A stretch of DNA of 64,000 nt from assembly GCA_964252035.1 (NCBI GenBank), contig OZ176205.1; one strand, 5' to 3'. Below the pieces are notes generated by a model. That model saw only the letters and a program-made list of their open reading frames with translations. It was not told where the DNA came from and made no database searches. Below, one piece after another: positions 1 through 38,584 of this stretch (the first letter of the stretch is position 1; each line of letters starts with the position of its first letter). This DNA is from Podarcis erhardii (taxonomy: Eukaryota). A program made the translations under genes and the position numbers.

Positions 1-110
1 TTTAAGGCAGCATAGAGAAAGCACTTTAGAACTTTCCTTTTGAACTTGCCTTTGGAATGAAGCAGCACAGATGCAGCTTGTATAAAGCAGCATGATTTAA
101 AGCAGCAGAC

Positions 111-3100
111 ATGACGCAGAAGGCTAATGCCAGAGTCATGATGGCCCTTCAGGATGCTTGTGGAATTCCTAAGCTCAATAAGAATAACTATGCGGACTGG
201 GTTCTCTATGCAGAGGCTATTCTGCGGAAAGAGGGTCTGTTTGAAGTTATTACAGACACCCCCCCAGCTCCAGTCACAGATGCATGGGAAGCTAAAGATT
301 CCAAAGCAAGGGGAACTCTTACATTGATAGTATCCCCAGAAGAGCTCTGTCTATTGCGTGATAAGACCTCAGCCAGACAAATTTGGGACGCTTTGAGAGA
401 GGCTCACTTGAGGACAGAAGCTGGATCCACTATGTTTTACTTTAACAAGCTGCATAATATGGCTCTTGCTGAAGGTGGAGATGTGCGTAAACATCTGATG
501 GAGATGCAGAATCTGAGACATGAGCTGCAACAGAGAGGACTCAACTTTCCAGAGGCTGTGTATTCCTTCATGATACTACAATCTTTGGGTTCAGGTTGGG
601 AGTCTGTTGCGACTCAGATTGCTGTACAGCCTACTGCTCAGCTGACAGTGGACTATGTTACTGCCGTAATTCTCAATGAAGCAGATCGCCGTGGTGCTAG
701 CTGCATGGGCAAGCGGGAGACTTCGCAGACGTCATCCCATAGTGCAGTGGAACCACCAGATGGCGCCAAAGCTTTGAAGGCAGTGAAATGCTACTCGTGT
801 GGACATCTAGGCCATATGAAGAGGGAATGCAAAAATCCCAGGGCCAAGACAGAGCAGCGCAGTGAAAGCTCATCGCGTGGAAAAGGCCGAGGCAAAGGCA
901 AAGGTCCAGTGTCCAGGACAACGCAGCCCAAGGCAATGGTCTCACGCTTCACTCCAAAAGTTGCAGAGGTCCAGAAGACGTCTAGATCTTTCTTCGTGGT
1001 TGATTCAGCAGCGACCCACCACATGTGCAACGATAAGCGACTGTTCGTGTCTTTTACACCGCAGGAAGGTGCGATTCACCAGGCGGATGACCACACAATC
1101 CCAAGTAAAGGCTACGGAACTGTTGTTCTTCACAGTTTGGACTTATCGATACAGAATGTGCTTTATGTGCCGGATGCCAAACATAATCTGCTCAGCGTTG
1201 GACAGCTGAATGAGCGGAATATTGACGTTTCCTTTAAGAACAAAAGGTGCATCATCACAAAGAAAAATGATTATGTATTGTATGCTGAATATGTTGATCG
1301 TTTGTATGTTTTGTATTATGATGATGTTGTGCAGGATGACACTTGTTGCATTGCAGGTACTAACAAAAGTTTGCATGCAGAATGTATTCACGATTTTCAT
1401 CGAAAATTTGGTCATTTGCATTTTGAGGCAGTATCTAAGATGCCTGCCTTGGTTGAAGGTATGACTATTAAACCCTGCAGGTACCACATGAAGTGCAAGG
1501 CATGCGCAGCAAACAAGGTAAAAATGGCTGCGAAAGGTAAGGTGTCTAGTAGGCAAGCTACAGAACCATACCAAATTGTTCATGCTGATTTGGTTGGGCC
1601 ACTAGCGCCCTCTTTGGGAGGAAACAGGTACTTCATGGTTCTCATTGATGCATTTTCCAGGTATATTTATGTGTACAATCTCAAGCAGAAATCAGAGGCT
1701 TTTCCTAGGTTCAAGGAATTCTGTGCTTGGTTGGAAAATGTGCATGGTAAGAAGGTAAAGACTCTTTTCAGTGATCGTGGGGGAGAATTCACTTCTCAGC
1801 AGTTTGAAGCTTTTCTGACTGAGAAAGGAATTCAACACGATTTGTCTAGTCCTCGCTCGCCATGGCAGAATGGACTTGCGGAACGAGCAAATCAGACATT
1901 GCTTCAAGGGTTAAAAACCTTGCTGCATGATGCTAATCTTCCAGAGAGTTATTGGGCCGAAGCTCTCTCATGTTTCACTTACAGTTATAATCGCAGGTTA
2001 TCTTCAGCGATTGGTTGTACCCCGTATGAGAAGATGTTTGGCAAGAAGCCATACATCAAACACATGAAAATTTTTGGTTCTGACATGTGGGTTCACTCAC
2101 CACAAAACTCCAAGTTAGACAAGCGTGGATTGCATGGTATCTTTCTAGGTTATCAGAAAGGGTCTTACAGAATAATGATGACTGACTCAAAGGCAATTAA
2201 GCTCACAAGAAGTGTTGAGTACAATGCCAAGTGGGGGGAGAATGTGGGAATTTTCCAGTGTTATCCTGATGACAGTGATGAGACTGAGGATAGTCAAAAG
2301 CAACCACAACAACCCACACCCACTGATGAAGGTTCTGATTCTGAGTCTGAAACTGAATCGGGTGATTCAGAGGATTTCGAGAGTGCGAAAGCCTCTATGC
2401 GACCCTCTGAAAGCTCTGATCAAGAATTGGAGGAACCATTGTTCACAATAGGTCACTTTTCTCCCAAGAAGGAAGAGGAGAGTGTTGAAGACCTAAGGCT
2501 AATTCGCAGATCACAAAGAGCCACAAAAGGCAGACCTCCAAAGAGATTTGCTGATGAGTTTGCTAAGATAACAGTAACAGCTGTTAAAAGCTCCAAGAAG
2601 GTATTTGAACCTTCAAGTTTCCAAGAAATCCAGGATTTGGATTCAAAGGAAGCTGAGCCATGGTTAAATGCAATGAAGGCTGAGCTTGATTCCTTGGAAA
2701 GGAACAAAACATGGGACCTAGTTCCAGTAGTTCCAGGAATGAAACTGCTTGGAAGCAAATGGGTCTTCAAAGCGAAGACTGATCAAAATGGCAAGATAGT
2801 CAGACACAAAGCCAGATTGGTAGCCAGAGGTTTTGCACAGGTACCAGGTGAAGACTATCACGAGACCTACTCACCCACAGTGAGGTATGAGAGCATTAGG
2901 CTTATGCTCAAGCTAGCTGCAGAGGAGAATCTACACATTAGTCACCATGATGTAAATACAGCTTTTCTGTACGGATCTCTAGATGAATCACTTTATATGC
3001 TTCCACCTGATGGCGTACAGGTAAAACAGGGATTTGTTTGTGCTCTGAAGAAGTCCCTTTATGGTCTCAAACAAAGTGCACGGTGTTGGCACACAAAACT

Positions 3101-4139
3101 CACTGAAGTATTGTTTTCTCTAGGTTTTAAGCAAGGGAAAGCTGATCCATGTGTATTTGTCAAAGAGGAGGGGCAAAAGAAACTGTATTGTTTGTTTTAT
3201 GTTGATGATCTTTTATTCTTTTGGAAAGATGTCACAATGTACAATAACGCCCTAGCTCAACTGAAAGAGCACTTTGACATGAAAGATCTTGGTGAGGTAA
3301 ACAACTACCTATCTCTGGAAATAGAGAGAGATCAAGATGGTAACATACTAGTACACCAGTCACGGAAAATTGCTGATGTGTTAAGCAAACTAAACCTGAT
3401 GGATGCTAACCCTGTAGACACACCGATGACAACAGGTTATCAGGTAGATGACACTGAAGAAGCATTTTCTGACACTACACTGTACAGAAGTGTGCTAGGC
3501 AAGCTAAACTTCATTGCCAGATGTTCAAGACCAGACATTGCTGTTAGCTGTAATTTGCTAAGCAGACAAGTCAACAATCCTACTGTTAAGGATTGGAAAG
3601 CTCTGAAACGCATAGCGCGGTATTTGAAAGGCACTATGCATTACAGACTGAGATTTAACAATCAGAAGTCTGGTGGTCTTGAAATATTTGCAGATGCAAG
3701 TTTTGGAAGTGACACTACAGACAGGAAAAGTACGTCTGGAGTTTGCTATATGTACAATCAGGGTCTATTTGATTGGTCATGCAAGAAGCAAACAACAGTT
3801 AGCTTAAGTACTTGTGAAGCTGAACTGAACGCACTGTCTTATTCACTTAAAGATTGTGAATGGTTGTTACAATTGTGCAAAGACATGAAAATTCCTGTCA
3901 AATGTCCAATCCAGGTTTACCAGGACAACAAAGCATGTTTGGCTTTGCTGAATTCTGAAGGTTGTAAGCAAAGCACAAAGCACTTGCAATTGAAGTTGCA
4001 ACATGCTAGGGAACGTATTCAAAAGGGATTCGTAACGGTGTCCTATATGCCAGGTAATGAAATTCCTGCTGATGTATTGTCCAAGATTGTATCAAGGGAT
4101 CAACACTGTACCTATGTGCAGAAGTTGGGTTTGTACTGA
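111..4139 (+). CDS. Ty1/Copia Gag-Pol polyprotein (Gag, CCHC knuckle, protease, integrase, RT, RNase H), uninterrupted 1342 aa
   Basis: CYSCGHLGHMKREC knuckle (789-830); protease FVVDSAATHHM (D at 1002); HRKFGH...CKAC Zn finger; integrase HADLVG/FSDRGGEF/NGLAERAN; RT WLNAMKAEL, LKKSLYGLKQSAR, FYVDDL (3198-3209); RNase H FADASF/CEAE/QDNKA. Order PR-IN-RT-RH is diagnostic of Copia. Confidence 0.98.
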   Translation: MTQKANARVMMALQDACGIPKLNKNNYADWVLYAEAILRKEGLFEVITDTPPAPVTDAWEAKDSKARGTLTLIVSPEELCLLRDKTSARQIWDALREAHLRTEAGSTMFYFNKLHNMALAEGGDVRKHLMEMQNLRHELQQRGLNFPEAVYSFMILQSLGSGWESVATQIAVQPTAQLTVDYVTAVILNEADRRGASCMGKRETSQTSSHSAVEPPDGAKALKAVKCYSCGHLGHMKRECKNPRAKTEQRSESSSRGKGRGKGKGPVSRTTQPKAMVSRFTPKVAEVQKTSRSFFVVDSAATHHMCNDKRLFVSFTPQEGAIHQADDHTIPSKGYGTVVLHSLDLSIQNVLYVPDAKHNLLSVGQLNERNIDVSFKNKRCIITKKNDYVLYAEYVDRLYVLYYDDVVQDDTCCIAGTNKSLHAECIHDFHRKFGHLHFEAVSKMPALVEGMTIKPCRYHMKCKACAANKVKMAAKGKVSSRQATEPYQIVHADLVGPLAPSLGGNRYFMVLIDAFSRYIYVYNLKQKSEAFPRFKEFCAWLENVHGKKVKTLFSDRGGEFTSQQFEAFLTEKGIQHDLSSPRSPWQNGLAERANQTLLQGLKTLLHDANLPESYWAEALSCFTYSYNRRLSSAIGCTPYEKMFGKKPYIKHMKIFGSDMWVHSPQNSKLDKRGLHGIFLGYQKGSYRIMMTDSKAIKLTRSVEYNAKWGENVGIFQCYPDDSDETEDSQKQPQQPTPTDEGSDSESETESGDSEDFESAKASMRPSESSDQELEEPLFTIGHFSPKKEEESVEDLRLIRRSQRATKGRPPKRFADEFAKITVTAVKSSKKVFEPSSFQEIQDLDSKEAEPWLNAMKAELDSLERNKTWDLVPVVPGMKLLGSKWVFKAKTDQNGKIVRHKARLVARGFAQVPGEDYHETYSPTVRYESIRLMLKLAAEENLHISHHDVNTAFLYGSLDESLYMLPPDGVQVKQGFVCALKKSLYGLKQSARCWHTKLTEVLFSLGFKQGKADPCVFVKEEGQKKLYCLFYVDDLLFFWKDVTMYNNALAQLKEHFDMKDLGEVNNYLSLEIERDQDGNILVHQSRKIADVLSKLNLMDANPVDTPMTTGYQVDDTEEAFSDTTLYRSVLGKLNFIARCSRPDIAVSCNLLSRQVNNPTVKDWKALKRIARYLKGTMHYRLRFNNQKSGGLEIFADASFGSDTTDRKSTSGVCYMYNQGLFDWSCKKQTTVSLSTCEAELNALSYSLKDCEWLLQLCKDMKIPVKCPIQVYQDNKACLALLNSEGCKQSTKHLQLKLQHARERIQKGFVTVSYMPGNEIPADVLSKIVSRDQHCTYVQKLGLY

Positions 4140-4186
4140 TATTGTACGAACACGCTGCCCAGTGATGTTCACAGAAAGGGGGAGGA

Positions 4187-4499
4187 TGTTGGTTTCTGCT
4201 CTCTTCACTGTGCAGCGAAGTGCTTGTCACAAGACAATATTTACATTCCACAGTCTGTACTGTTGGGTTTTCCCATGGGAAAGGGAGACTGGATGTGACG
4301 TACACTGGTTTCCTGTTTTTCACTGTTCTTTGCAGTTCAGTGTGTGCTTTAGAGGAGAGAGGATGCTTTTCTCTGCTCCGGCAGAGGCAAGATGTTTTTT
4401 CTGTAACATACCAGCTTTGAAGTGTAAATAAAGCAATATACAGTATGTAGCACGTACTCCTCATCCTTCCGCTGTGCACGGGACTACTGCTTATCAACA
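4187..4499 (+). repeat. Copia 3' LTR (313 bp)
   Basis: Starts TGTTGG directly after the PPT and ends ATCAACA (terminal inverted repeat); AATAAA at 4427-4432. Confidence 0.88.
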
Positions 4500-4849
4500 C
4501 TCGTCCTCTGTCGTCCCCTTCTCCTTGTGCCCTCCATCTTACCCAACATCAGGGTCTTTTCCAGGGAGTCTTCTCTTCTCATGAGGTGGCCAAAGTATTG
4601 GAGCCTCAGCTTCATGATCTGTCCTTCCAGTGAGCACTCAGGGCTGATTTCCTTAAGAATGGATAGGTTTGATCTTCTTGCAGTCCATGGGCCTCTCAAG
4701 CATCTCTTCCAGCACCATAATTCAAAAGCATCAATTCTTCAGCGATCAGCCTTCTTTATGGTCCAGCTCTCACTTCCATACATCACTACTGGGAAAACCA
4801 TAGCTTTAACTATACAGACCTTTGTTGGCAAGGTGATGTCTCTGCTTTT
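4500..4849 (-). mobile_element. BovB (RTE clade) LINE 3' fragment, interrupted by the Copia insertion
   Basis: Minus frame reads SNLSILKEISPECSLEGQIMKLRLQYFGHLMRREDSLEKTLMLGKMEGTRRRGRQR, a typical BovB RT C-terminus; it stops abruptly at the LTR end. Confidence 0.92.
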
Positions 4850-5105: not shown

Positions 5106-5509
5106 ATGGGGAGTTGCTGCCTGCCAGTGAATACCCTGGGCAGTGGTTAGAGATCATGGGAGTTGTAGTTCAATAGCAAGTGGAGGGGTCAGAGCTTCTC
5201 ACAGTGGTGTAGGCAAATATTGTGTTGGGTGAACTAGACAAATTCCTCCCTTTATGGAAGTTACCTATGTTCCTTGTTCACAGGAGCGACATATTTTCAC
5301 CAACTGCAACTTGGAGAGTATTCATCCAACAACCAGTAAATACAAATTGCAGTTTAAATGAAAGCATTGAAGGGTTTAATCCCTTGGGAAAAGTGCTTTT
5401 GGTAAACTAATCGCAATACAAGGGAACAAAGTATTCACTACACTTGCTGTTGTACCACAGTGGAAGTCATTCTCCTTTTTTTCTTTCCTTTCTCCCGTTC
5501 TCTGGATAG

Positions 5510-5572
5510 CATTGCCGAGGAAAACTCAAGACACATATAATGGTCCAGGAAATATGTTTGCGGTTACCAACG
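5510..5572 (+). CDS. IL23R: IL23R extracellular stalk exon (xLPRKTQDTYNGPGNMFAVTN)
   Basis: Long polypyrimidine tract + TAG acceptor, G|GTAGG donor, 63 bp, phase 1-1. Confidence 0.7.
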
Positions 5573-6613
5573 GTAGGAAATGTCTCTGTGTCAGGTTTCC
5601 AGAAGAGAGGTTTTCTGTGTTACCAGATTTGGGAGGGTTTTTTGGTTGTTGGGTTGTTGGTGTTTTTACACCAGCCAGTGATAACATCTCAAAGAGGTGG
5701 GAACTGAGTGCAGCATTCACTGACGTGATTATAGGGAAATGAAAGTTCAGGGTGTTTTCACACATAAAAGAGCTAACTCAAATTATTCTCAATCCAGAGA
5801 CATCCTAGGTTGAATATACAATATGAAAATACTCATATGAACTTTTAATGGTTGATTTTTAAAATTGTCAGTCAAGTGGCTAAAGGCACACAGAGGAGAT
5901 TTGGTGTACATAAAACAACAGGGGTGAGCTGACGTGTTTGCTCTTCAGGAAACATAACCTGCTATCACCAATTGCTATCTTGCTCCATACAGTATCTCAC
6001 ATTCTATCAAACTGGCATGGTACCTCTCCCAATTTACTCAAGACTTGATTTGTCAAATGTGGATCTAATTATGCTACTATCTAGTTTGCCAAGGAAACAC
6101 AATTCTCTAGTTAAACATCTTTATCACTCTGCTAAAGATAAGAAAGGCTAACAATGTGTATCTTGCGTAGCAAGTGCCATTGCCATCATATTCATGAGTT
6201 CTATTGAATTTGTCAAGCATGGTCAAACCAAAGCTTCATAATAAGCATAAGGCTCCCAGCCAGTTTCAGTGGCAACTTGTACTGAAATACATTATAAGGA
6301 ACCTTGACAATTTGAAAAGCCCTCCTCGGTGCATCAGCTTAGCCATTCAGTGGTTGATATGGCATCATGTGAACAGCTATGAGTAGAAGCACATGGTTGT
6401 CTATACAGGACACATTTCTAAGATGCAGGCTCAGCAAAAGCAGGAACAAAGCACTGTGATGATATACATCTGAACTTCACAAGCAATTGGTCAAGCATCA
6501 TAAAGTTATGATGAATTGATTTTATTCAGCAAGTGAGGTGTACCCTGAGTTAATTCTGAATACACATATGGTGTAAAATCAAAGTGCTGATCATTTCTCT
6601 CTCTCTTTTTAAG

Positions 6614-6713
6614 GTGATGGTGATGATGGTGGTGGTGTTCTGTGGGGAACTGGCTTTGGAATGTTCTTCTTATTTATAATTATTTTGAGTTTGATTGCTA
6701 CAAACATTAAGAG
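6614..6713 (+). CDS. IL23R: IL23R transmembrane exon (GDGDDGGGVLWGTGFGMFFLFIIILSLIATNIKR)
   Basis: tttttaag acceptor, AG|GTACAA donor, hydrophobic helix followed by KR. Confidence 0.85.
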
Positions 6714-7369
6714 GTACAAGCGTGAAGTGTTTCCCCAGACTTTTCTCCTTAGCCTTCGAGCAAATGTTTCAATCTTGGAAAATGTGTGTGCAGTGCCTGT
6801 TTGCGTTCATATTTTCCCTTATTAAAGCAGGGCAAGGGTGATGGTTTTGTAATTGATTTGTAAAGTTATTTAGGGCTGGTGAAAGATTGGTCCTTAGCTG
6901 TAATACAATATCTGACTGCAGTTAGGCTGAAATTGATGGCAAAGCTGTGTATTTAAGTGTAAAACAACTGAAAAGCAGGATGTGAGGCAACTTCATGCAT
7001 AGATATGACATGACATATTTGACAAAAGATTTTCTCCACTCTCCACTTTCCTCATCAGAGCTATTTTTCTCTCAACGAGAAATGTGCTGGGGGTGGAAGA
7101 GTGATCTGGGAAGGGGCTCTGGAAGAACAGAGAAAGGGTTCAGCGCTGCTCCTAGTCGCTTGCCACTATTGCACCAAAATCATTCCAGACCCCATTTCAC
7201 TTGTGTTTCTTGGTAACTGCATTTGAAGGCAAGGAGCTGCAACCATTACATATAATTCTGCTCTCAACCTTATCTAAACTACATAAGCATTTCCAATCCA
7301 ATAATGAATCTGAACCGTGATCAGTTCTTCCAAAATGCAATTCATGTGTTGTGCTTTTTTTAAAAAAAG

Positions 7370-8457: not shown

Positions 8458-9081
8458 GGGGAAAATGGTGGCATAACACACAATTCCACTGGGTTGTTCA
8501 TCGATCATGAGGATGCTGTAGTAACTGAAGTGGAGGAGACACTGGTACACAAGGAGTATAAGGTTGTAGATCATAAAGAGGAAACTAGAGAAGCAGTTCT
8601 GGATAATGTTAACATTCCAGAAGACATACTGTTTGTTGGCAATTCGGACACAACGGAGGAAAATGGCTACAAACCTCAGATTTCCAGCCCAGCAGTCTTA
8701 CAAGACAGTACTTATGAAATACATTCGCAAAGCCCAGATAAAAAACCAAACACCCCAGCTTTGCCTGTGAGTAGTTTAATAAAGGATTTCCCAAGTCCCA
8801 TGGCTACCACATGGCCTATTGTTGGTACCAATGAAAATACATTTTTATTTGATAAAATCAGTCTTGTTTTGAACAACAGTAAAAGTGGACAGAGCAACAT
8901 GGTCAGCTCAACAGATGAAGAGCCACATACACCAACAGAAAACCAATGGAGGCCCCTACTTTCAGATGATGATACTCAAGAACAGACCTTAATACCAGAT
9001 GAACTTCTCTCTTGCTTAAATGCTGTGAATGAAGATTCTTCCGATATAATGTCTTACTTTCCTCAAAACGTTGCAAAGTAA
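8458..9081 (+). CDS. IL23R: IL23R terminal exon, cytoplasmic tail
   Basis: ttcttag acceptor in frame with ORF 8494-9081; GYKPQ and SYFPQN YxxQ STAT motifs as in mammalian IL23R. Confidence 0.93.
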   Translation, partial: GENGGITHNSTGLFIDHEDAVVTEVEETLVHKEYKVVDHKEETREAVLDNVNIPEDILFVGNSDTTEENGYKPQISSPAVLQDSTYEIHSQSPDKKPNTPALPVSSLIKDFPSPMATTWPIVGTNENTFLFDKISLVLNNSKSGQSNMVSSTDEEPHTPTENQWRPLLSDDDTQEQTLIPDELLSCLNAVNEDSSDIMSYFPQNVAK

Positions 9082-24517: not shown

Positions 24518-25158
24518 GTAGTTGTAGAAGGGATCATTTCCCCTTTCTTCACAAGAAGCAAGGCTCAGTCCCCCTCCAAACCCCATGGAATCTGGCTGCC
24601 CTGAGTGACACAGGAATTCATTGCAAGGGAAACAGATACCTGTAGGTGGGGGTTTTCTGTTCGTCTGCCTGAATCTAAACAATGATGGAAGCAAGAGCAG
24701 CAGGCATGCTGGTAGCACAGGGTTTGGGGTGTGCGATTAGTTATGTAAAAGGCTAGACAAGAAGACCTGGAAATCCCAGACCTGTGTCTTGAAAGCACGG
24801 AACAAGTGTGGGCGATGGGGGTCCCCTGTGACGGGGATGAAATCGATCCCACCATTCTGCAGCTGATCAGTCATTTGAGAGAGGGAGTTTTCTTCCCAAT
24901 CACAGCATGGTGGACTGGCAGGTTTAAACCTTAATTCTAAAGTTTAGCAGTATATGGTGACAAAAATATCCTTTCATGGGGGGGGGGGGTAACAGCCATC
25001 AGCATCAGGATGGTTGCTCCAGACACCCTGATTTAGAACACATTTCTCTTACCATATAAAGGCAATATGTGAAGCAATTTTCCATTGCGGTATTCAAAGT
25101 TGATTAAGTTCCCAATAAATTATTGCAGCACATGTCATGTTTGTTTCCTGCATTATAG

Positions 25159-25430
25159 GGGAGGCATGAATGCTAGTGACACAGTCGTGTCAAATGGATC
25201 AACTGTGATTCTGTCCTGCTGGCTAAACAACAGTGGATCATCTAGCAATTTGCAGAACAAGCATACAATAACTATTTTACACAACCACTCAGCAATAAGC
25301 AGCAGCTCTGGCTTTTTGGTCAGTGCTCACATTTCACTGCACACATTTGGGAGGCAGACGTTCAAATGCCATCGGAGTTCTCGGCAGGAAAGGAAAGTGA
25401 TCGTATGTGGAGTTTACGTCGATGTTGGAA
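25159..25430 (+). CDS. IL12RB2: IL12RB2 Ig-like D1 exon (5' end may be 25129)
   Basis: GSTVILSC...TFKC...IVCGVYVDVG matches human GSTVNITC...ICGAEIFVG; A|GTAAGG donor. Confidence 0.85.
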
Positions 25431-26326
25431 GTAAGGAGGTGCTTTTGTCTGTAAATGTTTTGCCGGCGTTCACAGACAATGTGTGTGTGTGCAAACAAAA
25501 AATATATAATATAAGATTGCAGCAGGGATGGCAAAATCAAGAGGCTCTGGTGCCTTTCACTCAATAACTTTCATTTATTGAGGAATGGAATGTTGTGTCA
25601 TAGAAACATGAGGTATTATTCTTCCCATATACTTTTTTTTTTAACTGAGTGGGGCTTTTCACAGAGACATCCCTGGCCTGCGCCCAGCAGCACAATCCGG
25701 CTAGAAGTCAAGCATTTATAAATCCCATTCTCAATCAAAGAGATTTAAGCCAGTGATTTACTTTCCCATTGAAATCAATGGGACATAGCTTGGGGTGGTC
25801 ATTCCATATTTTCAGACCTGTGTAAAGGGGGAGGGGAATCTTATTTTTTGAGCTATTTTATTCTTTAGTGATATTATATTGTGCACCAAACTCTTAGCAT
25901 AAAAAGGGCATCAGACTCAGGGCATTCCTTGCCCCCACTTTCTTTTTCTTTTTGCAATAGATTTACTGTTGCGCAGGCATTTTTTTTGGTGCAGGGAGAG
26001 TGTGTTTTACAAGCACTTTTGCACCAGGCAATATCTGATCATCGCTAGATTTCCATCCCATACACACCCCTCTATGCTTCTATACCATTCATTCATTGAT
26101 GGACTCTGAAGTATGCTTTAGAACTTTGGGTCAGCAGCACAATCCTATTTTGCACTTAACACTTTCTCCTAATAAAAATAATGAAATAAGCAAATATGAA
26201 CTCTTTACAAACATGTAATCTACAGGCCTATTTAATTAAGAATAAATGGATAAATACAAGTCCTAGATGCCAAAGGAAGGATTCATATTAACAGACATTA
26301 AGCCACTTATGTTGTCTCCTTTTAAG

Positions 26327-26441
26327 TTCCTCCAGCCCAGCCCAAAAATATACTCTGCATTCAGCATGGAAAGGATGGAAGTACTATTTGCACTTGGGAT
26401 AAAGGACACTATACCTACCTTGATACTAACTATACATTACA
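26327..26441 (+). CDS. IL12RB2: IL12RB2 D2 exon (PPAQPKNILCIQHGKDGSTICTWDKGHYTYLDTNYTL)
   Basis: Conserved C-x10-CxW; ttttaag / GTAAGT; phase 1-2. Confidence 0.93.
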
Positions 26442-26931
26442 GTAAGTCTCACTTGTGTCTCAGTTTTTACTGTATTCCTATTCACTTGCACCTGCCTGTT
26501 GTCTGAGTTCTTGCTACCTTGACCTCCTAAAGCCCCACCACCTGCAGCATATTGCACTTGTGCTGGAAACATGTCTCCTTGTGAAACCATCTGGGTTAGT
26601 CCTTCACAAATGGACTTGTATGTATTGTTTTGTACTGTTTCCTTCTAGGATTTTCTTGCTACTTTCTGAACTATGGTACTTTGTGGGTTGCTAATTGTGT
26701 CATCTGCTATGGCCCCAACTCCTGGACCTAAGCAGCTCTGGGTTCAGATCATGTAATGTGCTTAACAGAAGTGTCAATTGACTGTATATAATATGGTACT
26801 GAGCAGTATTCCATTAACTGTCACACAATGTTTTATGGGTGTGAAATTATTATAATCTCAGCAACAAAGCAACATTCTTTGAGGGTAGAAAAGGGATGAC
26901 CTTTTCATCCAGGTTTATCTTTCTATTGCAG

Positions 26932-27119
26932 GCTAACAAATGGAACCACCAATGAATCAACAGTATGGAAAGATGAAAGGAATAAAAATAGCTCATATGG
27001 CTCAGTAGAGCTCAGAATGAAGTTGAATTTTCAGTCCACCTATACAGTTGTCATCAATGCCACCAATGGACTGGAAAAGGTTTCTTCCCAACCAATTCAG
27101 TTCAGATTAATTGACATAG
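26932..27119 (+). CDS. IL12RB2: IL12RB2 D2 second exon (LTNGTT...YTVVINATNGL...FRLIDI)
   Basis: ttgcag / GTAAAT; phase 2-1; open frame. Confidence 0.92.
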
Positions 27120-27273
27120 GTAAATGTCAGGAATTTTCCTCAATTTAAATCATATTATTTGGCTGGCACTCCAAAGGATTTCTAGAGAGTATTTGTTTGG
27201 GTGCAATTTCCTTTCACCCACCAAAAAGCCAATGAAACAAAAGAAGCTGTGCCACAATTCACTTGGTCAGTGG

Positions 27274-27462
27274 CAGAGGTGCCAACTTGAATAAAATATT
27301 GGGGGCGGGGCAGATAAGCCCCACCCACATAATCAATTACAAGACATAGCACACACACACTATTTGAATGACAATGCCCATCAACTTTGGGGTGGCCTAG
27401 CCCCCTCAAATATTTTAGGGAGGGCGCGAAAGGACCTTGCCCCCTAGGAGTTGGCTCCTATG
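27274..27462. mobile_element. hAT-type MITE
   Basis: CAGAGGTGCCAACT / AGTTGGCTCCTATG TIR; perfect 8-bp TSD GTCAGTGG (27266-27273 and 27463-27470). Confidence 0.85.
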
Positions 27463-28429
27463 GTCAGTGGTGATTGTTTGCTTTCTTGTCTAAACAGCAG
27501 GCTCCCACTCTATCACAGTATATCAGAAATAGGGGGGTTGTGTGCAGCTTCTGTGGTATAGGACACAATTGTTCAGAAATGAAAGTAAATGCTGTATACA
27601 GAGAATGACGTGTTAAACTTGGGCTACAGTTGAGTAGTTAACTTGTGAGAACGGCAGTACTATTAATCAGCACTGACTCACACACGAAACACTGAATCGC
27701 CTTTTTATTTTTTTAAAAAAGCCTTGATTGCAGAGTTCCCATATGAGTGAGTCATGTGAAGAGGGAGAACTTCACGTAGAGGCCATATTGCTTAGCATGT
27801 TTTTGAAAAAGCACATGGTGGCAAAGTCCTTTGCAGTGGAACCTGCCTGCTTCCATTAAAATCTGACGCCCATAAAGAGAAAAAGAGGTGCTGTTTATCT
27901 TTTAGATTTGTTAGCCACCTGTACTCCTAATTGTCCCAAGTAGAGAGATAGTTAGAATAATAGGTTATCTAGAACAGTGATATATAGCAGTGGAAATAAA
28001 GAACAGTTGAAGGTGAAAATGCAGAGGGGCTAATGCATGCCAGCACATATCGGCATTTTACCAGTCAGTCATTTGTATTTGACTGGGGCATCTGTTATTT
28101 ATTTTTATGAGGGTGTGGTGGGAAGGAGCTGGACTCTGTCCTCTTCTTTAAATGAACATGGTCAAGGCTCCCCATGTAATACAGCTGACCAGGCTGCTCC
28201 TAGTGCAGCAACAGGAATGGACTCATAAAATAGCTTACGTTGCTGGACGCAATATGTTTTCACGAGCAGTTCCTAGTCCAATAGAGGGGTCCGCAGCTCA
28301 TTCCTCAAAAAATAAGGATCACTAGTATAAGCTTTCTGTGTATAGCCACTGGCAATTTCAAGAGTACTAACTTCTGTGTTTTCATTCATTTCATTTCCTT
28401 CAAATGTATTTTTGGTCACCATAAATCAG

Positions 28430-28572
28430 TGAAGCCGCACGCACCCGTGAACCTCTCAGTGGCATTTGATGGTTTTGATGCAAGAAATTGCAGCATTTCG
28501 TGGCAAGATCAACAAGACGCACAACACTTTAGATTAAGATACCAACCAATGAACAGCAACTCTTGGACCACG
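28430..28572 (+). CDS. IL12RB2: IL12RB2 D3 exon (VKPHAPVNL...CSISWQD...RLRYQP...WTT)
   Basis: Phase 1-0; matches human VRPLPP...RLRYRP. Confidence 0.93.
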
Positions 28573-29699
28573 GTAATGTTTTCTAAATGTATTCTTGTAT
28601 TACTAAATGGCAAAACAGCTTGGTTGTTTACAAATTTACAGTAATGTAAATTCCTCTTTCCATACACAACCTAAGCAACCCATACTGAAGGGATTAAGAG
28701 CATGTTATACAGAATTAAGTTTTTGATATTTATCTCAGAATTACTAGACTTGGAATATCTCCCAGGACAACCTGCTCATAGATGATCCTGTGTATACATA
28801 CTTGTTTGAACACTACAAGGATGAAAAAGAAGCAGCATAGAAAAATTTGGTTGGTGTGTACACAACACACACACTTCAAATTCTGCAGTCATCCTAGTTT
28901 CAGATCAGGAACAGGCAACTTTGCATAGACTCACAACCCAGTTACCAACTTAGCTCATACTTCTAAATGGATTTCTACTGATAGAAGCAAGGAACCTAGA
29001 AGTTCCTGGGCGCTAGGCTCCTCTATACATTTCTTCGCCATTTTATAGGCCTACAGATAATATGTAAATCTTGCACTCATAGAGTTCATCATAGTAAAAG
29101 CAGTACTGCATTTAGAGAAGGGCTTTGGGCTGATGTCCAGGGCCCCTGTCAGCAGAAGGAAGAGGAGGGCCCCTAAACACAGAAGGGCTGTCCTAAAACA
29201 CTCTTAAGGAAATGAAGCGAAGTCCATTACCATCTAAAGCAGGGGTGGCTAACCTTGTTTGGACTCCCAACTCCCATCAGCCCAAGCTAGCATGACCAAC
29301 AGCCAGGGACAACGGAAGCTATGTGTCTGAAGTGCCACATTCTAACCACCCCAATGCAAATAGATGCCCCCACCAGGATCATAAGGTCTAAAATTACCTA
29401 AATGCACCACCACCAAGCATAAGGTAAAAAATAATGTGATTCTCCAGGTGACAGTGAAAGAAATGACCTCACAACCTGCCGTTCCATTCAACTTTAATGG
29501 GTTAATGAGGTGCTAATGGCGCCAACACTGTTAATTACTCCTCAGTTACACACATCTCTGAAGAGACAGGATGAGAGCTTGTGGTAAAGGAAATGCACCA
29601 TTTGTTCCATTCAGCAATGAGTAGTATACAGTACTGTGATCCTGTATTGACCTAGCAAAGTGTTTCCCAAACTTAGGGTCTCTAGCTGTTTTTGGACTA

Positions 29700-30530
29700 C
29701 AGTGGTGCCTCGCAAGACGAAATTAATTCGTTCCGCAGTTTTTTCGTCTAGCGAGTTTTTCGTCTTGTGAAGCACGGTTTCCCATAGGAATGCATTGAAA
29801 ATCAATTAATGAGTTCCTATGGAGACCGCTTGCCAGGCTGGCGGTGCGGAGAAGGGCTTTTCTCCCCACCGCAAGCCTTCAGGACAGGTACGGGAACAGA
29901 GGGGAAGGCGCGCAGCGCTTCTCCTCTGTTCCCGGGGCTTGCGGTGGGAGGAGGGTTTTTCCTCCCCACCGCCAACATTCAGAACAGCATTCTGAAAGTT
30001 GGCGGTGGGAAGGAAAACCCTCCCCCCACCGCAAGTCTTCAGGACAGCCATCCGAAGGCTGGCGCAGGGAGAAGGTCTCTCCGCCCCCCGCCAGCCTTCG
30101 GAGCAGCCATCCCAAAGCTGGCGCGGGGCGAAGGTCTCTCCGCCCCACTGCCAGCCTTCGGAGCAGCCATCCCAAGGCTGGTGGCGGGAGGAGGTCTCTC
30201 CGCCCCACCGCCAGCCTTCGGAGCAGCCATCCCAAAGCTGGTGGCGGGAGGAGGTCTCTCCGCCCCACCGCCAGCCTTCGGAGCAGCCATCCCAAAGCTG
30301 GCACGGGGAGAAGGTCTCTCCGCCCCACCGCCAGCCTTCGGAGGAGGTCCGAGGACAGTGGGGAAGACGCACTGCGCTTCCCCGCTGTCCCGGAGATTTC
30401 CCTATGGGCTTTCGTCTTGCGAAGGAAGCCCATAGGGAAATTCGTTTTGCGAAGCGCCTCCAAAACGGAAAACCCTTTCGTCTAGCGGGTTTTTCGTCTT
30501 ACGAGGCGTTCGTCTTGCGGGGCACCACTG
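29700..30530. mobile_element. Tc1/mariner-superfamily (Tigger-like) non-autonomous element, 831 bp
   Basis: TA|CAGTGGTGCCTCGCAAGACGAA ... TTCGTCTTGCGGGGCACCACTG|TA; repeated subterminal TTCGTCTTGCG motifs. Confidence 0.9.
30061..30343. repeat. 60-bp GC-rich minisatellite (~4.7 near-identical copies; degenerate units from ~29836)
   Basis: Consecutive 60-nt lines repeat AGGTCTCTCCGCCCCACCGCCAGCCTTCGGAGCAGCCATCCCAAAGCTG. Confidence 0.95.
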
Positions 30531-30672
30531 TACAACTCCCATCATCCCTAGCTAGCAGGACCAGTGGTCAGGGATGATGGGACAGCTAGAGACCCACGTC
30601 TGGGAAACAGTGTCCCAGCACTTGGTTTAGAAAACAGTTTTGATGCTCACTGTATTTTCCTTTTCATTCAAG

Positions 30673-30811
30673 CTTGAAAATATAAACAGCAGAAGATATT
30701 ATCTACATGACCTGAAGCCAGATACAGCATATGAATTCCAGGTTTCCTGCAGGTTCCTGCCCAACAAAGGATTATGGAGTGACTGGAGTATGTTGTTTCA
30801 AACAGAAGCAG
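30673..30811 (+). CDS. IL12RB2: IL12RB2 WSXWS exon (DLKPDTAYEFQVSCRFLPNKGLWSDWS)
   Basis: WSDWS at 30775-30789; phase 0-1. Confidence 0.96.
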
Positions 30812-32324
30812 GTGATACAATTTTGAAATGCCTAGCATTTATTTTTGTACCTATGTAGAAATCAGATAACACATTCCTGCTTGCAGCCAAACTATCATCT
30901 CATAGGAATTCAGTGAGGAATAGAAATAATATTCATATGGCCTGGAGACCCAAGCAACAAAACAAGACATAAGAAAGAGATATTTTTCTCTGTTCAGTGA
31001 AACAGATGCACAAGACTAGATCAGAAGAATCAAGGGTCTATAGTGAAAAGCTCTCATAGCAGTCATCACAAATCAGCAACAAGGTATACATGCAGAATAC
31101 CCACTAACACAGCAAGGATGCAGAACCAATGTTGTGTGGCCTGCACAACAGAACTTCCCCGCCTTGTCCTCTCCCTGCAGGCTCCAATATCTGCCCTGGA
31201 GGGTCCTCCAAGCCTCTAGAGCAGATTTTGAGGGTATACGGGAGGCTGCAGGAGGGAAGTAAGAGGAGAAGGTTCCACTGCAGGAGTAAGTCTGACGCAT
31301 GAGCACGACAGCCTTTGGCCAGTCTGAAAGGTATTCAGATTCTTAACATGCAAGACCTGCTTCATAATTATAAAAAACATTGTCCACTTTCCTTCAAACT
31401 GGACCATCACACAGAACCATGCCACAAAGTCTTCATTTCCTCTGTGACTTAGAAAACTTTCAGCAACGATTTGTAGCTATGGCAATTTGTAGCTTATGGT
31501 CTTTGATGTCTTTGTGGGTTTCTGTCAAGCACAGAAAGACGTTACTATAAATTGTCACCCTTGCATCACTGACCACTAGTGACATAATCAGTTCCTGTCA
31601 CTGACAGATGCGGCAAGAGGTGTGAACGTCTCCCTCTCACCCCTTTGTGGCAACTGACATTTTATCGTAGTACCTGCAAACCTTTTAAAAGGGCTTGGAA
31701 TAAATGGAGGATAAGGGTATCAATAGCTACAAGCCATGATAGCTATTGCTGCCTTTGGAATCAGAGACAGCATGCATTTGTGTGACAATTCAACAGTGAG
31801 AGAGGGCTGTTGCCCTCATCTCGGTTTAGGGGCTTCCCAGAAAGATCTGGTTGGTTTCTGTGGTAAACAATGCCATAGGTCAGCATGGAGAACTAGCCAA
31901 AAAATTGCTCTGGTTGTAGAGGAAGTAATAATACAGTTACCCAAGAAAACAGAGTAAAGATGGCTAAATAAGGGGAGGAAGCAACAACACATGATGATTA
32001 TGCCATTCAGGCACATCACCTTTCCACTATTTCCCCCCCTGCTTGCTCCAACAGTGACCCAACCACCATGACATATTTTGGATGAAAATATTAGCTCCAA
32101 TCTCATTTGGCTAAGTCATGGTTATGTGAAGTGCAGGGGGGCTTTTATAGTTGCTTGCCAGGCAACTACACCAACCTACCTCATTCTTCAGTGGGGACCC
32201 GCCACTATATAAAACAACTATTCCTTCTCATTTGTTTTCTATGTGCTGTCCAATACTTTGCAAAAACCACACCCAAATCAACTATGCAATGTGTTATAAA
32301 GTTCTTCTTTCTCCTTTCATCCAG

Positions 32325-32404
32325 TACCACTTCAGTCAACTGATGTCTGGTATTTAATGGAAGATGTGTCTTCTGAAACGCAGAATATTACACTTTTTTG
32401 GAAG
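32325..32404 (+). CDS. IL12RB2: IL12RB2 FN3 exon (PLQSTDVWYLMEDVSSETQNITLFWK)
   Basis: DVWY...LFWK as in human; AAG|GTAAGA donor; phase 1-0. Confidence 0.93.
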
Positions 32405-33969
32405 GTAAGAATATCTACGCACATACGCCATTTAGAGGGTGTTGCTGTATGTGTATATAAACCAAAAGCATAATAGTTCCTTACCCTAATTTAGGGGTGG
32501 GAAATCTGTGGCTGCCCAGGTTTTGTTGGGACTACAACTGCCAAGCTGGCTGGAGTTGATGGGATTTGGGTAAGCGACCCCATTACTGCATTAGAAAAGC
32601 AACTCCTCTTCAAAGAGCAAAAGTACATAGCAGAGTTCCCAATTTCTTTGGATCAGCTGACATTCCATAGAATAGTGAGCTGCCAAAGGGTGGTGTAATA
32701 GTTGGCCTGTTAGAACTTGGCTGGAGAGACCTGGGATTGCATCCCTGATCAACCATATGGCATGACTGCAATCCTATGAATAGCTTGCCCATTGAATTCA
32801 GTGGTGCTTTTGGTGGCCTAGGTGTAACTTGTAAAACACATCAGGTTGAATTCAAGGAAGTTGTACCCAGAAGAGACCCATTAAAATTGATGGGCCTAAG
32901 TTAGTCATTTCCATTAATTTCAACAGGTCCACTTTGAGTTTGACTAACATGGCATACAACCCAAAAAAACTTTTCCTAGTGGAAATGCAACCTTTGGCTT
33001 TTAATTGCAAATGCACAGAAGAAAGAAGTACATAGAAGTACAAAATGCAGAGAAGTACAAAGAAGTGCTACCATTTAAACCACTAACATGTAGTAAGAGA
33101 ATGAGGAAAATAACCAAGGGCTCAGGACTGATTTCCTTTGATGAGGTTCCAACTCTAGGTGCCTCCAGATGAGGCGTGTTTAAATACTTAGCATTCATCC
33201 TTACTTACTGTCACAAAGTTTACATGTTAGTTAGACTAGGTCTGATCTCCATGAAACACTCATTCTGATTTCTTTAGAAAGTGTTACACATCATCTTGTT
33301 GATAATTCATTCATCCCACATTTTCAATGCATTTCCCTGTCACTTTCCAAACTGCAAGAAGTCTTTTCGCGTATGTGGTTTTGCACAAGGGTAACAGAGC
33401 ACCTGAATCCACTTTAAATGTGCAAACTTAAAGTTCTGGAACATGCTTAAATCCCCACCTCAAAATACAGGCACCCTTCCTCTAAGCCAATCTCTCCACA
33501 AAGCAAACTTAGAAACCATGCACATGCCAGACCAGTGAAGGTACATCAGTTGCTCTGGCAGGTAACACCATTCCTGCCCTGAGAAAAGGCCATAAGCAAA
33601 GTTTCTCTCCCCACATACCCACTTCCTGTTCCATTATACCACTGCCTTCCCCTCATTCCCCTCTGCTACTCACTTCTTAGTACAGCTTTGCTCAAACAAG
33701 CAGTTTCTTACCTGTTTTTGTTATTCACACTGAAACGAGATTCTCATTCATACTGGCTGCTTCTTAGAAGAGAGGAAAGCCATGCTGCAGTTTCACCTGT
33801 GCTTTCTTCAGCTTGCGGTATTCTTGGTTCCACCCATTTGTCACCTTTGCCTCTGTTTGAGAGTTAAGAATCCTTAATGAGGCACACCCTACAATACTTC
33901 AATGAAATGCACTAGTAGACTATGTCGTCTTTCCCTCACATTCCCTCTGAGTTCAATAATACTAGCATC

Positions 33970-33970
<1 letters not shown>

Positions 33971-34008
<38 letters not shown>
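33971..34008. repeat. (AC)n microsatellite
   Basis: Direct read. Confidence 0.95.
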
Positions 34009-34010
<2 letters not shown>

Positions 34011-34834
34011 CTTCCCCAAATAATCCTGGAATTCTAAGTAGTTTAACAATCAATCCCTCTTCCCATGGAACTCTGGGAATTGTCGCTCTCTGAGGGGAGT
34101 TGGGGTCTCCTAACATCTCTCACTACTCTTCACAAACACCAGCTCCTTGGGTTCTTTAAGGGAAGCCATGATGGTTTCAAGTGGCCTGAAACTGCTTTAA
34201 ATGTGAAGGGACATGGAGCCTCAATATAAGGGGAATTACGGTAATAAGGAGAGTTTGTATTTCATGTGCCCAAGTCTGCTCTTAAATGAAAGAAGCCTGT
34301 GCCAACCTAGTGAAGTATGCTCTTGACTAATGTTTTTTTGTCAAGAGCACTTTGAGAGGGTTTTTTTTGGGGGGGGGGTATACTTGCTACAATTGGACCA
34401 GCCATGGGCCCACTTCACCTTCCATGCAATGCATTGTGGGAGGTGAAGCTTCTTACTCACACACACTCAGCCGCTTCCCTCAAGCCAGCTTCTCATCAAA
34501 TTGTAGTACAGTAATATAAACAATGAAGGGAGTCTGAGTCTCCCCATCTGTCAAATTGGAACAACATCAGAGGGCTTTGGTGAGGGCAGTCTGAAAGAAA
34601 CCTGCATCTTAAAATGCTGCACCGATACTGAGGGACAGCAGCTTGCTTCAATACGGGAAGCTAAGTACCACATCCGCACTCACCCAAAAATACTAACAAG
34701 GATTATTTGAACAAGCCTCCTTCTCTCAGCCTGGCTTCCCTTGGAAGTTTCTTAGACTGACACTTGTGTGTTAGAAAATGCATTAGAAATTACTTTTAAA
34801 ATATAACAAATGGTAACCTCTCAGGAGCTTGTCA

Positions 34835-35025
34835 TTTCTACCCCACCTTTTCTTAAGGCAGCTTACATGACTCCCCTCCGCTCCCATTTTATCCTCACAA
34901 TCCCCCTGCAAGGAAGGCCAGTTATGCTTAGAGGGGGTATATATGGCTGGCCCAAGTTTATCCAGAGAGCTTCATGGCTGAGGGGGGGAAAGGAGAGGGA
35001 ATTTGAACCTGAGTCTCTAATGGCC
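34835..35025 (-). mobile_element. MIR/CORE-like SINE fragment
   Basis: CCCATTTTATCCTCACAA...GGCCCAAG...CTTCATGGCTGAG...GAATTTGAACC. Confidence 0.55.
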
Positions 35026-35133
35026 AACTGAATGAACGCTGGCTTCAAACTGCTGCTAAAACTTGTTTCGTGTGTGGGCGTTGGTGAAACATGCAAAGAA
35101 ACACATACGCTATTTTATTTTATTTTTTAATAG

Positions 35134-35350
35134 ATGAGTGTATTAGAAGTGAGAAGGAAAAGTCTTGAGTATAGAGTGACGTTTTCAGCCTTAAACCAGA
35201 TGCGTCAAAGAGACACGGGAACAAATTCTACAGTGCAGACCACATTCTCACAAATCATTCCTAAGACAGACTATAGCATTACAATTTGTTCTCACAACTC
35301 ACGGGGAATATCCCAACCCATTTATATCACTACTAAACTAGGAATTACAG
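35134..35350 (+). CDS. IL12RB2: IL12RB2 FN3 exon (MSVLEVRRKSLEYRVT...HNSRGISQP)
   Basis: Strong T-rich acceptor; CAG|GTAAGA donor; phase 0-1. Confidence 0.92.
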
Positions 35351-35685
35351 GTAAGACCCTTTCCTCCGATTCATTTGATTTCAGTATGATTCTGTCTATT
35401 ACCAAGCTGCACTGGAATGTTTTATACATGGCAAACCATCATTTTAAGTTTATTAGATTTTTTGACTCCAGACTCCAGTTGTAAGTAATAGGTCAGCATT
35501 GTCCTGAGGGAGGTATACACACAACTTTGTTTAGTTTTGTATTTAGTATTCGATCACAGGTACCCCTCCCATAATTTCCTAGTGGAAAGAGAAAACCCTT
35601 AACTGGCAAGGACTGTGGCATTAACTATGGTAACTATTATGTTCCTATATAGTGCCTAGCAATTTTAGGTGCTTTATAAATACTG

Positions 35686-35983
35686 ACACAGAAAACAAAC
35701 GGAGCACTTTCTATTCTTTTCTCTCTTTTTTGGTTGGGGAAATCTCTCCTTGTTCACTCCCTGCGGTGACGCTATGCCTGCTAGTAAACGCCACAGGGAC
35801 CCAGAGGATGTAGCTCTCTCACCGGTTTCCAAACAATCTAAAATAGAGGACTTTTTAAACAAATCTGCTTTTACAGTTTCAACAAAAAACCGGTTTTCTC
35901 CTCTTGAAGATGATTGTGAGTGTGGGGAGAGTACTCAAGGTGAGAGCGTGGAACTGGATCCAGCAGTTCCACGCTCTCACCAG
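35686..35983 (+). mobile_element. 298-bp insertion resembling the 5' end (leader + ORF1 start) of a non-LTR retrotransposon, ending in an 18-bp hairpin
   Basis: 12-bp TSD TTATAAATACTG (35674-35685, 35984-35995); ATG at 35774, MPASKRHR...KNRFSPLED; terminal inverted repeat 35939-35956 / 35964-35981. Confidence 0.7.
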
Positions 35984-36309
35984 TTATAAATACTGTATTA
36001 TTGTTGTTACTGTATTTGTTATCAATGCTACACAAATGACTTAGAATTACACTTGGGTCCAGGCTAAGCAAGCTCTGATTTAGTCCCACTTGAAATCGAT
36101 GGGACAAGTTAGCCATGATCAACAGAACTAAAGCATGATTATTATAGTCTAGACTTAATCCATATTGCTTAGTTCCAGTTCTTATTCCATCTCAAGTTAC
36201 TTTTACTCTTGGATAATTTTGATTTCTGATGTTGTACTCCTGTGTTCAGCTAAGGATTTAATATTTTTCCTGGTCTCTCTCTCCCTCCCCCCCAAAAACT
36301 TTTCAAAAG

Positions 36310-36507
36310 ATCTGCCACCCCCAAACCATCTTTCTGCTGTATCACTGGGGAATGGAAGAATCTCTGTTGCATGGGAAGCCCCTATTGCACCTTTCCCTTT
36401 TATTAATGGATATGTTCTACAATGGACAGAGCTCCATCACAGCAGTCACTTGAGAACTCCCATAACCTGGCTCAAAATCCCCATCTCCAATCTCACAGCA
36501 ACAACAG
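36310..36507 (+). CDS. IL12RB2: IL12RB2 FN3 exon (DLPPPNHLSA...WEAP...YVLQWTEL...TWLKIP)
   Basis: Phase 1-1; CAG|GTAAGT donor. Confidence 0.93.
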
Positions 36508-37386
36508 GTAAGTTGCACAGGAGGAGAGTAGTGGGCATCCCTGTGGGCTTTATTAGGGGGAAGGCTGGCTCTGTGCACCTGGCAAAGGATGGTCAATTAC
36601 TGTTTTTTGGATAGCACTTCACCCCCACACACATTAGGTTGCAGCTTTGCACTGCACAATAGTTCGTTCTGCCTTCCAATTTTTCCAGATGGCATGAGAT
36701 TATCTCTTTTGAGCTGCAGCTCTCATCATAGTCACTGGAGGCAAAAGAGGAATTTGTGTCCTGTCAGTCTCAATGAGCTGAGCTCGTCTAATAAAAGCAA
36801 GCTGCTCAACACCTTATTACTACCAAACTCAATGCTAGCTTTCGGTTCCCTCCATGTCCTTTTTATTATTATTGCACATTCAGGATGATTTGTGCTAATG
36901 ATGCTCTCAGGGTGGGCATACATGATCCCACATTCAGTACTGTTTGCAACTGGAAAAGTTTTGGGGTTTGGAAAAGCTTCCTTTCCAGTCAGTGCATAGC
37001 CCACTGCATCCACCTGAAATCCCATAACTTTTTATATCACAAAAGTTGTGGTTTATTTTTCTTTCGCTTTTGAAGTTCTGTAGCCCCTCCAGACAGCAAT
37101 AATGTGATAGCATTGGGGAAGTCTCATAGGACTGGCAAAACAGAATAAATCCACCACTAAAGCATTATTATTATTTTCCTTTGTTCCCTGTTTATTTGGG
37201 TGGGTCCATTTGACTCACAGGAATAGCAGCTTTGTAAATGCAGTGCTCTAAAAACCATGTTTTATACCTATGTCCAATCTATGACTAAATATCAGGTGTT
37301 GTCCAGCCCATGCTTTCCCAAACTAGGCTTGGACTCGGTCTCACAATAGACAGATTTGCATCAAATACCATTATTGTCCTTTCTAG

Positions 37387-37488
37387 AGAGCCTAAAGCCT
37401 AACACCTGTTATCAAATCAGTGTGTTTGCCCTCTACCAGAACAGAGCAGGAAGAGCCGCTTCCACAACAGAAGATGTATCAGCAAAAG
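37387..37488 (+). CDS. IL12RB2: IL12RB2 FN3 exon (ESLKPNTCYQISVFALYQ)
   Basis: Matches human NIKSYICYEIRVYAL; phase 1-1. Confidence 0.93.
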
Positions 37489-37577
37489 GTAAGGGCAAAG
37501 GCACTCCAGACCTAAACATACCTTTGAGACCCAACATAGTCAATTCAGATTTCTCAAGATGATTTCATGTTTTGCAG

Positions 37578-37733
37578 CCCCATTAAAAGGACCTCAAATT
37601 AACACAACAGTAAAAGAAAGAAGCATTTTGGTCTCCTGGCAGGAAATTCCGGACGATCATCGATTGGGCTGCATTGTTCACTTCAAGTTATACTTGCAAA
37701 AGCAATTTGTCATGGTGCCCCCTAAAGTCTACG
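37578..37733 (+). CDS. IL12RB2: IL12RB2 FN3 exon (APLKGPQI...SILVSWQEIP...GCIVHFKLY)
   Basis: Matches human APLSGPHI...GCLLHYRIY; follows an 89-bp intron. Confidence 0.94.
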
Positions 37734-37760
37734 GTAGGTATCTGTTAAAAATTAGGGCTT

Positions 37761-38510: not shown

Positions 38511-38584
38511 TGTGACTTGATACTAGCTGATACTCATATTTCCCTCATTCTCTTCCTTTTCAACCCTCTCCCCACTCCCAACAG

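Follow-up and report, generated by a model that had tools for sequence, protein, structure and literature searches.

Long terminal repeat (LTR) retrotransposons of the Ty1/Copia group are absent from mammals and birds according to the available text of PMC4350176, which supports the same statement in the preliminary description of this DNA. In the corn snake, an active Copia family of 85 copies causes colour mutants (PMC11948899, PMC4657000, accessible sections), and a pufferfish survey reports some non-Copia LTR families in which gag is often missing (PMC11117352). The DNA analyzed here is a window of 64,000 nucleotides from the wall lizard Podarcis erhardii (G000:C6:63860001-63924000), which starts inside a Copia element. 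This insertion is a real Ty1/Copia element and is ordinary as a single insertion; a young intact Copia in a squamate is likewise ordinary, with the corn snake as a precedent. The novelty lies in its family, where a capsid-less allele exists inside one recombining vertebrate Copia family, a kind of element known in plants from BARE2 and Tos17. Our literature search found neither a vertebrate capsid-less Copia partner nor a paper on Copia in Podarcis; Repbase and Dfam lay outside the search, and the family may be named there. The window holds an intact young copy of a long-resident lizard family, and we consider it probable that the capsid-less subtype of this family spreads packaged in the particles of intact copies. 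The support for the packaging model is from genomic sequence only.

The whole element is 5,124 bp long (C6:63859376-63864499) and starts 624 bases ahead of the window, with the 5' LTR at G000:C6:63859376-63859688. Both LTRs are 313 bp long and identical at 312 of 313 positions, the sole difference being C/T at a CpG, with no indels. The structural hallmarks of Copia are all present, namely two direct TG...CA LTRs, a primer-binding site (PBS), a polypurine tract (PPT) and a 5-bp target-site duplication (TSD), CTCGT, on both sides. The stop-to-stop frame at 96-4139 contains a single gag-pol open reading frame (ORF) of 1,342 aa with its ATG at position 111 and no internal stops. There is no env, as the gag-pol ORF is the only one and just 47 bases lie between its stop and the 3' LTR. 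The Pfam domains appear in the order gag_2 (aa 35-195), zf-CCHC, Pol_BBD protease, gag_pre-integrase/rve, SH3 and RVT_2. This corresponds to the Copia order of protease, integrase, reverse transcriptase (RT) and RNase H, with rve ahead of RT and RVT_2 at E 2e-70; RNase H was placed by its known motifs, and no RNase H family was among the Pfam matches of the ORF. The motifs DSAA (aa 298), DLVGP (493), DRGGEF (555), NGLAE (587), YVDD (1030), ADA (1194), EAE (1236) and DN (1272) were found, and we take them to have their usual catalytic roles.

The preliminary description, made from the sequence alone, had noted a full set of catalytic motifs, the uninterrupted ORF, a clean PPT and a TG...CA 3' LTR, and had predicted that CTCGT would precede the 5' LTR, as it does. 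Its claim of a young, intact member of a recently active family is supported by the near-identical copies in the genome and by the single substitution between the two LTRs, as opposed to a divergence of several percent. The features of the element within the window are as follows.

1..110, + strand: 3' part of the leader; 5' LTR, PBS and remaining leader upstream at G000:C6:63859376-63860000
111..4139, + strand: gag-pol ORF, open, 1,342 aa
146..590, + strand: capsid-coding stretch absent from the capsid-less subtype, the commonest form of which has a net in-frame loss of 432 bp; right-hand limit approximate
213..695, + strand: Retrotran_gag_2 (capsid), aa 35-195, E 6e-29
789..830, + strand: CCHC zinc knuckle (nucleocapsid), retained in 32/32 open capsid-less ORFs
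993..1220, + strand: aspartic protease (Pol_BBD, DSAA motif)
1299..2225, + strand: integrase, with zinc-binding region, rve core and SH3-like domain
2703..3431, + strand: reverse transcriptase RVT_2 (YVDD), E 2e-70
3680..4100, + strand: presumed RNase H region, placed by its known motifs; approximate limits
4173..4186, + strand: PPT
4187..4499, + strand: 3' LTR, 313 bp, TG...CA, with AATAAA at 4427
4500..4504, + strand: TSD CTCGT

The window copy is of the full-gag form, and the capsid-less subtype is not visible from the window. Many RT matches in the genome lay in frames of approximately 1,203 aa, not 1,347 aa. In these copies the capsid region is gone in frame after codon 12, with a loss of approximately 144 codons, and the start codon, zinc knuckle, protease, integrase, RT and RNase H are kept. 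Exact junction probes gave 182 capsid-less as compared to 77 full-gag matches, and none for the reversed controls. We inspected 67 of the 77 full-gag and 66 of the 182 capsid-less matches (60 of 100 listed, on contigs C1-C5, and 6 fetched earlier). A total of 133 copies were fetched, of which 103 were distinct and had two LTRs (52 full-gag and 51 capsid-less). The pairs L140/L141, L183/L184, L189/L190 and L193/L194 resemble duplicates of one insertion, with the same TSD or the same break, and would represent segmental or assembly duplicates; L141, L184, L190 and L194 were dropped before counting. The alignment statistics left out copies without two window-like LTRs (15 full-gag, 13 capsid-less).

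Exact TSDs flank 36/52 full-gag and 33/51 capsid-less copies and are all distinct within each type, and LTR pairs without substitutions were observed in 12/52 and 16/51 copies, respectively. The mean LTR divergence was 0.67% for the full-gag and 0.85% for the capsid-less copies, and the ORF was open from the ATG in 31/52 and 30/51. All 32 open capsid-less ORFs contain the zinc knuckle, protease, first two integrase motifs, RT YVDD and RNase H motifs, and the RT HDV motif and the third integrase motif are found in 31/32 and 28/32, respectively. Thus, based on the distinct TSDs and the substitution-free LTR pairs, we conclude that the capsid-less subtype has retrotransposed many times, and recently. 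It shares with the gag-defective, pol-keeping class of BARE2 and Tos17 the loss of the capsid, a retained pol ORF and transposition after the loss.

That the capsid-less copies are an assembly artefact, or the product of repeated independent deletions, has next to no probability, and nothing was found in its favour. One common junction occurs in 182 places, and a contig from run X1 spans L192 1030-1106 across it without differences (29 bases on the short side, as compared to a bar of 31). The junction-specific DNA was moreover covered in runs of organisms A, B and D, and the common junction and this cover together rule out both explanations. The runs of organism E, a congener, gave no cover over the capsid-less junction (bins 1077-1139), the uncovered part being no evidence of absence. 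On L192:930-1530, run X11 of this organism yielded long full-gag contigs at a depth of about 1,900, versus about 19 on single-copy flank, depth not being equal to copy number. This suggests that the full-gag form had a young burst of its own in organism E, with homogeneous copies.

The capsid-less copies are not a separate lineage from their putative helper. The fixation index (Fst) between the two types was -0.01 to 0.05 in the LTRs and from position 700 on, 0.01-0.15 in the leader and first codons, and reached 0.66-0.88 only beside the deletion. Linkage with the deletion decayed in the same manner, from a mean r2 of 0.63 at 600-700 to 0.01-0.03 farther on. The four-gamete test was failed by 1,786 of 1,830 pairs of common pol sites, and the nearest pol neighbour was a copy of the other type for 48/103 copies. 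Template switching between co-packaged RNAs would be the simplest cause of this allele exchange.

The capsid deletion is of old origin. A 70-base gag remnant at the junction matches older-subfamily copies at up to 63/70 positions and the window copy at 55/70. Copies with the 128-base junction form (3 copies) have LTRs that are 82-84% like those of the window copy, as compared to 84-89% for the 125- and 116-base forms and 90-99.7% for the 119-base form (43 copies, 7 tested). Junction length thus tracks the age of the backbone, and the capsid-less copies have outlived the turnover of LTR types.

In the model that we favour, the capsid-less RNA would be packaged in particles built by intact copies like that of the window. 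A dependence on the Gag of a helper would follow from the established biology of LTR elements and from the allele sharing. Both types of RNA would be co-packaged, and template switching would then be the source of the exchanged alleles. More tentatively, the zinc knuckle might tether Pol to the RNA and replace the capsid contacts.

Family-wide purifying selection on pol is clear, with a pN/pS of 0.12 for variants in at least 4 copies and 0.48 for singletons, values that are not assignable to either type. At the junction, 62 copies fall into five length types that imply four deletions (3, 9, 12 and 12 bases). All four are in frame, versus 12 of the 40 private pol indels (Fisher p = 0.013), while the amino acids of the junction stretch drift (10 nonsynonymous and 2 synonymous shared changes). 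This speaks against the subtype as a pure passenger, supplied with both Gag and Pol in trans, winning by its shortness or packaging, and with a pol held open by youth and refilling by recombination, because recombination with intact copies cannot refill the junction. A weaker point in the same direction is that no stops were found among 60 variants shared only by capsid-less copies, as compared to 12 of 350 private variants. The ORF breaks in pol comprise 45 private ones and 3 common to two copies, and the two copies with a common break are never among each other's nearest copies (L197 aside). A single source of the -2 indel common to L153 and L171 was rejected, as the two differ at 63 positions versus a median of 60.

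Other observations weigh against our model, or against a selected frame, and several of them fit a pure passenger, which we nevertheless consider unlikely. Older full-gag copies escape the exact probes (there are at least 150 gag matches), and L095, among the 77 full-gag junction matches, is a chance match; the 2:1 ratio is therefore limited to young copies. The in-frame test is based on four events that were read off an alignment, and a 63rd junction (L197) carries a frame-breaking insertion. Variants shared only by capsid-less copies (35 nonsynonymous, 25 synonymous) are not significantly more conserved than private ones (210 and 128; p = 0.57), and therefore selection on the copies' own Pol lacks statistical support. 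For a passenger, this absence of extra constraint, the pol Fst of about zero and the one-in-three chance that the founding deletion would be in frame are all as expected. The same applies to a one-base frameshift in the gag C-run, common to five full-gag copies, three of which are close to each other there (3-6 differences versus about 10); it suggests that an open frame is not required for an RNA to be copied. Gene conversion, finally, could homogenise the copies in place of template switching.

A gain in cis, by which the frame is kept since translation of the copy's own nucleocapsid-Pol fusion, or escape from nonsense-mediated decay, gives the RNA an edge, appears to us evenly balanced. The broader proposal is tentative: the capsid-less type would be a 'Pol-only allele' of a vertebrate Copia, stably inherited across several speciations and a complete LTR turnover and now more numerous than its helper, with selection for the translation of a nucleocapsid-Pol fusion that serves the very RNA encoding it. 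If true, it would provide natural evidence for cis-preference in an LTR element. In vertebrates, LTR elements have the lowest Ka/Ks, indicating the strongest purifying selection, and cis-preference is not known for them; one copy expressed per cell has been suggested (PMC7070016, available sections). The purifying selection on these elements is thus unexplained. A capsid-less copy cannot move alone, and the family therefore separates cis-preference from the one-copy-per-cell idea: any continued selection on the capsid-less frame would have to stem from an advantage in cis. The idea is testable on about 180 capsid-less and 77 intact copies, which are dated through their LTRs and occur in several related organisms.

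A division of labour, in which the main product of intact copies is Gag and the Pol of the shared particle pool comes from capsid-less copies, as in a two-part element, is improbable. The long coexistence across LTR turnover and the retention of all main motifs in the open capsid-less ORFs would be in line with it, as would the need of single-ORF Copia elements to control their Gag:Pol ratio, with BARE2 RNA reported on polyribosomes in the accessible part of PMC3735527. However, the pol of intact copies is itself constrained (pN/pS 0.10 for variants in at least 4 copies), the high-depth full-gag contigs of organism E indicate that the intact form likely amplifies alone, and a copy is hardly favoured by selection for a benefit that it confers in trans.

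The family is large. In the RT protein search, 150 of 2,256 candidates were scored, and all 150 were 99-100% identical in amino acid sequence. An RT 20-mer had 217 genome matches, which puts the genome-wide count at more than 200 copies, and a 20-mer of the window LTR type had 115, with no matches for the controls. Most of the older copies lie on contig C19 (30 Mb, 2% of the genome), as do 23 of the 77 full-gag junction matches (binomial p 1e-20). This contig is likely an archive of past subfamilies and, judging from lacertid karyotypes, likely the W chromosome. The TSD length was 5 bp in 67/69 family TSDs.

The preliminary description had also suggested a recently invading, possibly horizontally acquired family, for which the data give no support; we consider a recent horizontal invasion very improbable. 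The burst of near-identical copies would suit an invader, but Gag matches in the host genome form a continuum from 100% to 67% identity, and older copies have LTRs that are 70-84% identical to the current type. The family is also present in runs of three other organisms; in the farthest, organism E, its divergence (28/445 bases) is no smaller than that of the host flank (27/994). The closest database relatives were a protein at 71% (over RT-RNase H) and a fragment at 80%, both without a stated host and to that extent in favour of an invader, followed by a protein from Elgaria, the nearest named relative, at 55-59%. Named non-squamate proteins and the other hits were at most 43% identical among 240 listed hits; in one of the searches behind these, only the best-sharing candidates were scored. 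In a quick RT-RNase H tree of 42 rows, the family, the 71% and 80% proteins and the Elgaria protein formed one clade (SH-aLRT 100), apart from Trichuris and Araneus Copia. The long stem of this clade (1.1 changes per site), which sets it apart from every other Copia in the tree, could again be taken to favour an invader. The rows contained no named fish, amphibian or Anolis Copia and neither Drosophila copia nor Ty5; L212 and L216 were too short to be included. Within this set, the element groups with the Elgaria protein, far from named invertebrate Copia. An element divergence below that of the host, a lack of older copies and a close relative in a distant taxon, as expected from recent transfer, were not observed in these comparisons, in which vertebrate Copia are poorly sampled. 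Comparison of the sequences favours long residence in squamates, and an ancient transfer is possible.

The window insertion itself appears to be young. Host-flank differences were 21/1,572 for organism B, 25/1,575 for organism D and 27/994 for organism E, and at these rates the Poisson chance of at most one difference in 313 LTR bases is 0.08, 0.04 and 0.002, respectively. Because the difference between the LTRs is low relative to the host-flank rates, the insertion is likely younger than the splits from B, D and E, clearly so only for E. In the empty-site comparison, contigs end at the insertion point in the flanking repeat, which has a huge copy number.

The PBS pairs at 14/14 bases with nucleotides 26-39, in the anticodon arm, of a host tRNA-Met gene at L082 609-680 (ARAGORN), and not with the 3' end of the tRNA. 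We take this tRNA to be the initiator. Priming by a half tRNA would follow, as in Drosophila copia and yeast Ty5, the PBS of which is likewise complementary to the tRNA-Met anticodon arm (PMC5371799, available text). The lizard element differs from these two in having 3 bases between LTR and PBS, and its family in commonly having a PBS variant with two mismatches opposite the anticodon. This variant (L031 1296-1309 and family) has 160 occurrences as compared to 5 for the control, and is present in 54/82 typed two-LTR copies, young and old alike, suggesting that the PBS is inherited from the element rather than recopied from the tRNA. The PBS core with other adjacent bases gave 330 genome matches, four of which are tRNA-Met genes and most of which likely belong to other half-tRNA-primed Copia families. 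In the leader upstream of the window (L031 1331-1471), 55/57 copies that have the anchor retain both an upstream ORF of 46 codons and a site resembling a splice donor at window -171. The LTR of the window copy stops 3 bases further in than most (window 4497-4499; L031 1287-1295), and 47 copies stop at the outer CA. In copies with a mutated outer CA, the LTR end usually shifts to the next CA, as if the integrase takes the nearest one.

Exon mapping places the element in sense in an intron of IL23R, between L083:6489-6584 and window 5494-5574, ahead of the exon for the transmembrane segment. The features next to the insertion are as follows.

4500..4849, - strand: older very high-copy repeat, target of the insertion; reading resumes in the left flank, across the TSD
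5494..5574, + strand: IL23R exon directly 3' of the insertion
6634..6720, + strand: IL23R exon with predicted transmembrane helix
7365..7460, + strand: IL23R exon
8458..9081, + strand: last coding exon of IL23R, 97% and 95% identical to Podarcis IL23R proteins

The repeat at 4500..4849 is presumably RTE/BovB-like. The AATAAA of the element lies in sense ahead of the transmembrane exon, and early polyadenylation there might, speculatively, yield a soluble IL23R. Downstream of IL23R, exons of a second cytokine receptor lie at window 25073-41608, which, judging from synteny, is likely IL12RB2. A weak fibronectin-type match was observed at window 36273-36500, and a GC-rich tandem repeat at 29788-30577 has open frames on both strands.

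The family is likely a source of recent intronic mutation in wall lizards, as is Copia in corn snakes. The corn snake element (OCA2 and CLCN2 insertions) is likewise young, multi-copy (85) and inserted into introns, and the accessible accounts mention no capsid-less partner (PMC4657000, PMC11948899). It is 5,832 bp long there, as compared to 5,124 bp for the lizard element, and the likeness is by description, not by sequence. Among the plant systems, barley BARE2 likewise cannot make Gag, keeps pol and relies on its sister element BARE1; an 8-bp deletion has removed its gag start codon, and it is regarded as a family of its own (PMC3735527, available text). In the lizard subtype, by contrast, the capsid is cut out in frame, the start codon and zinc knuckle are fused to Pol, and both types form one gene pool. 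Rice Tos17 is likewise an active Copia with a pol ORF and no capsid, but has no gag remnant or zinc knuckle, is present as two copies and shows 57% identity to Lullaby, the proposed helper (PMC3977881, available text). The lizard subtype, on the other hand, has about 180 copies, with a pol that is typically 95-99% identical to that of its helper. Defective-interfering viral RNAs have a shorter genome that outnumbers and recombines with its helper; the lizard subtype differs from them in being inherited through the germ line and in keeping its replication enzymes. Thus, the subtype is likely a long-lived capsid parasite like BARE2 and Tos17 in plants, which recombines with its helper and may gain in cis from the translation of its own Pol.

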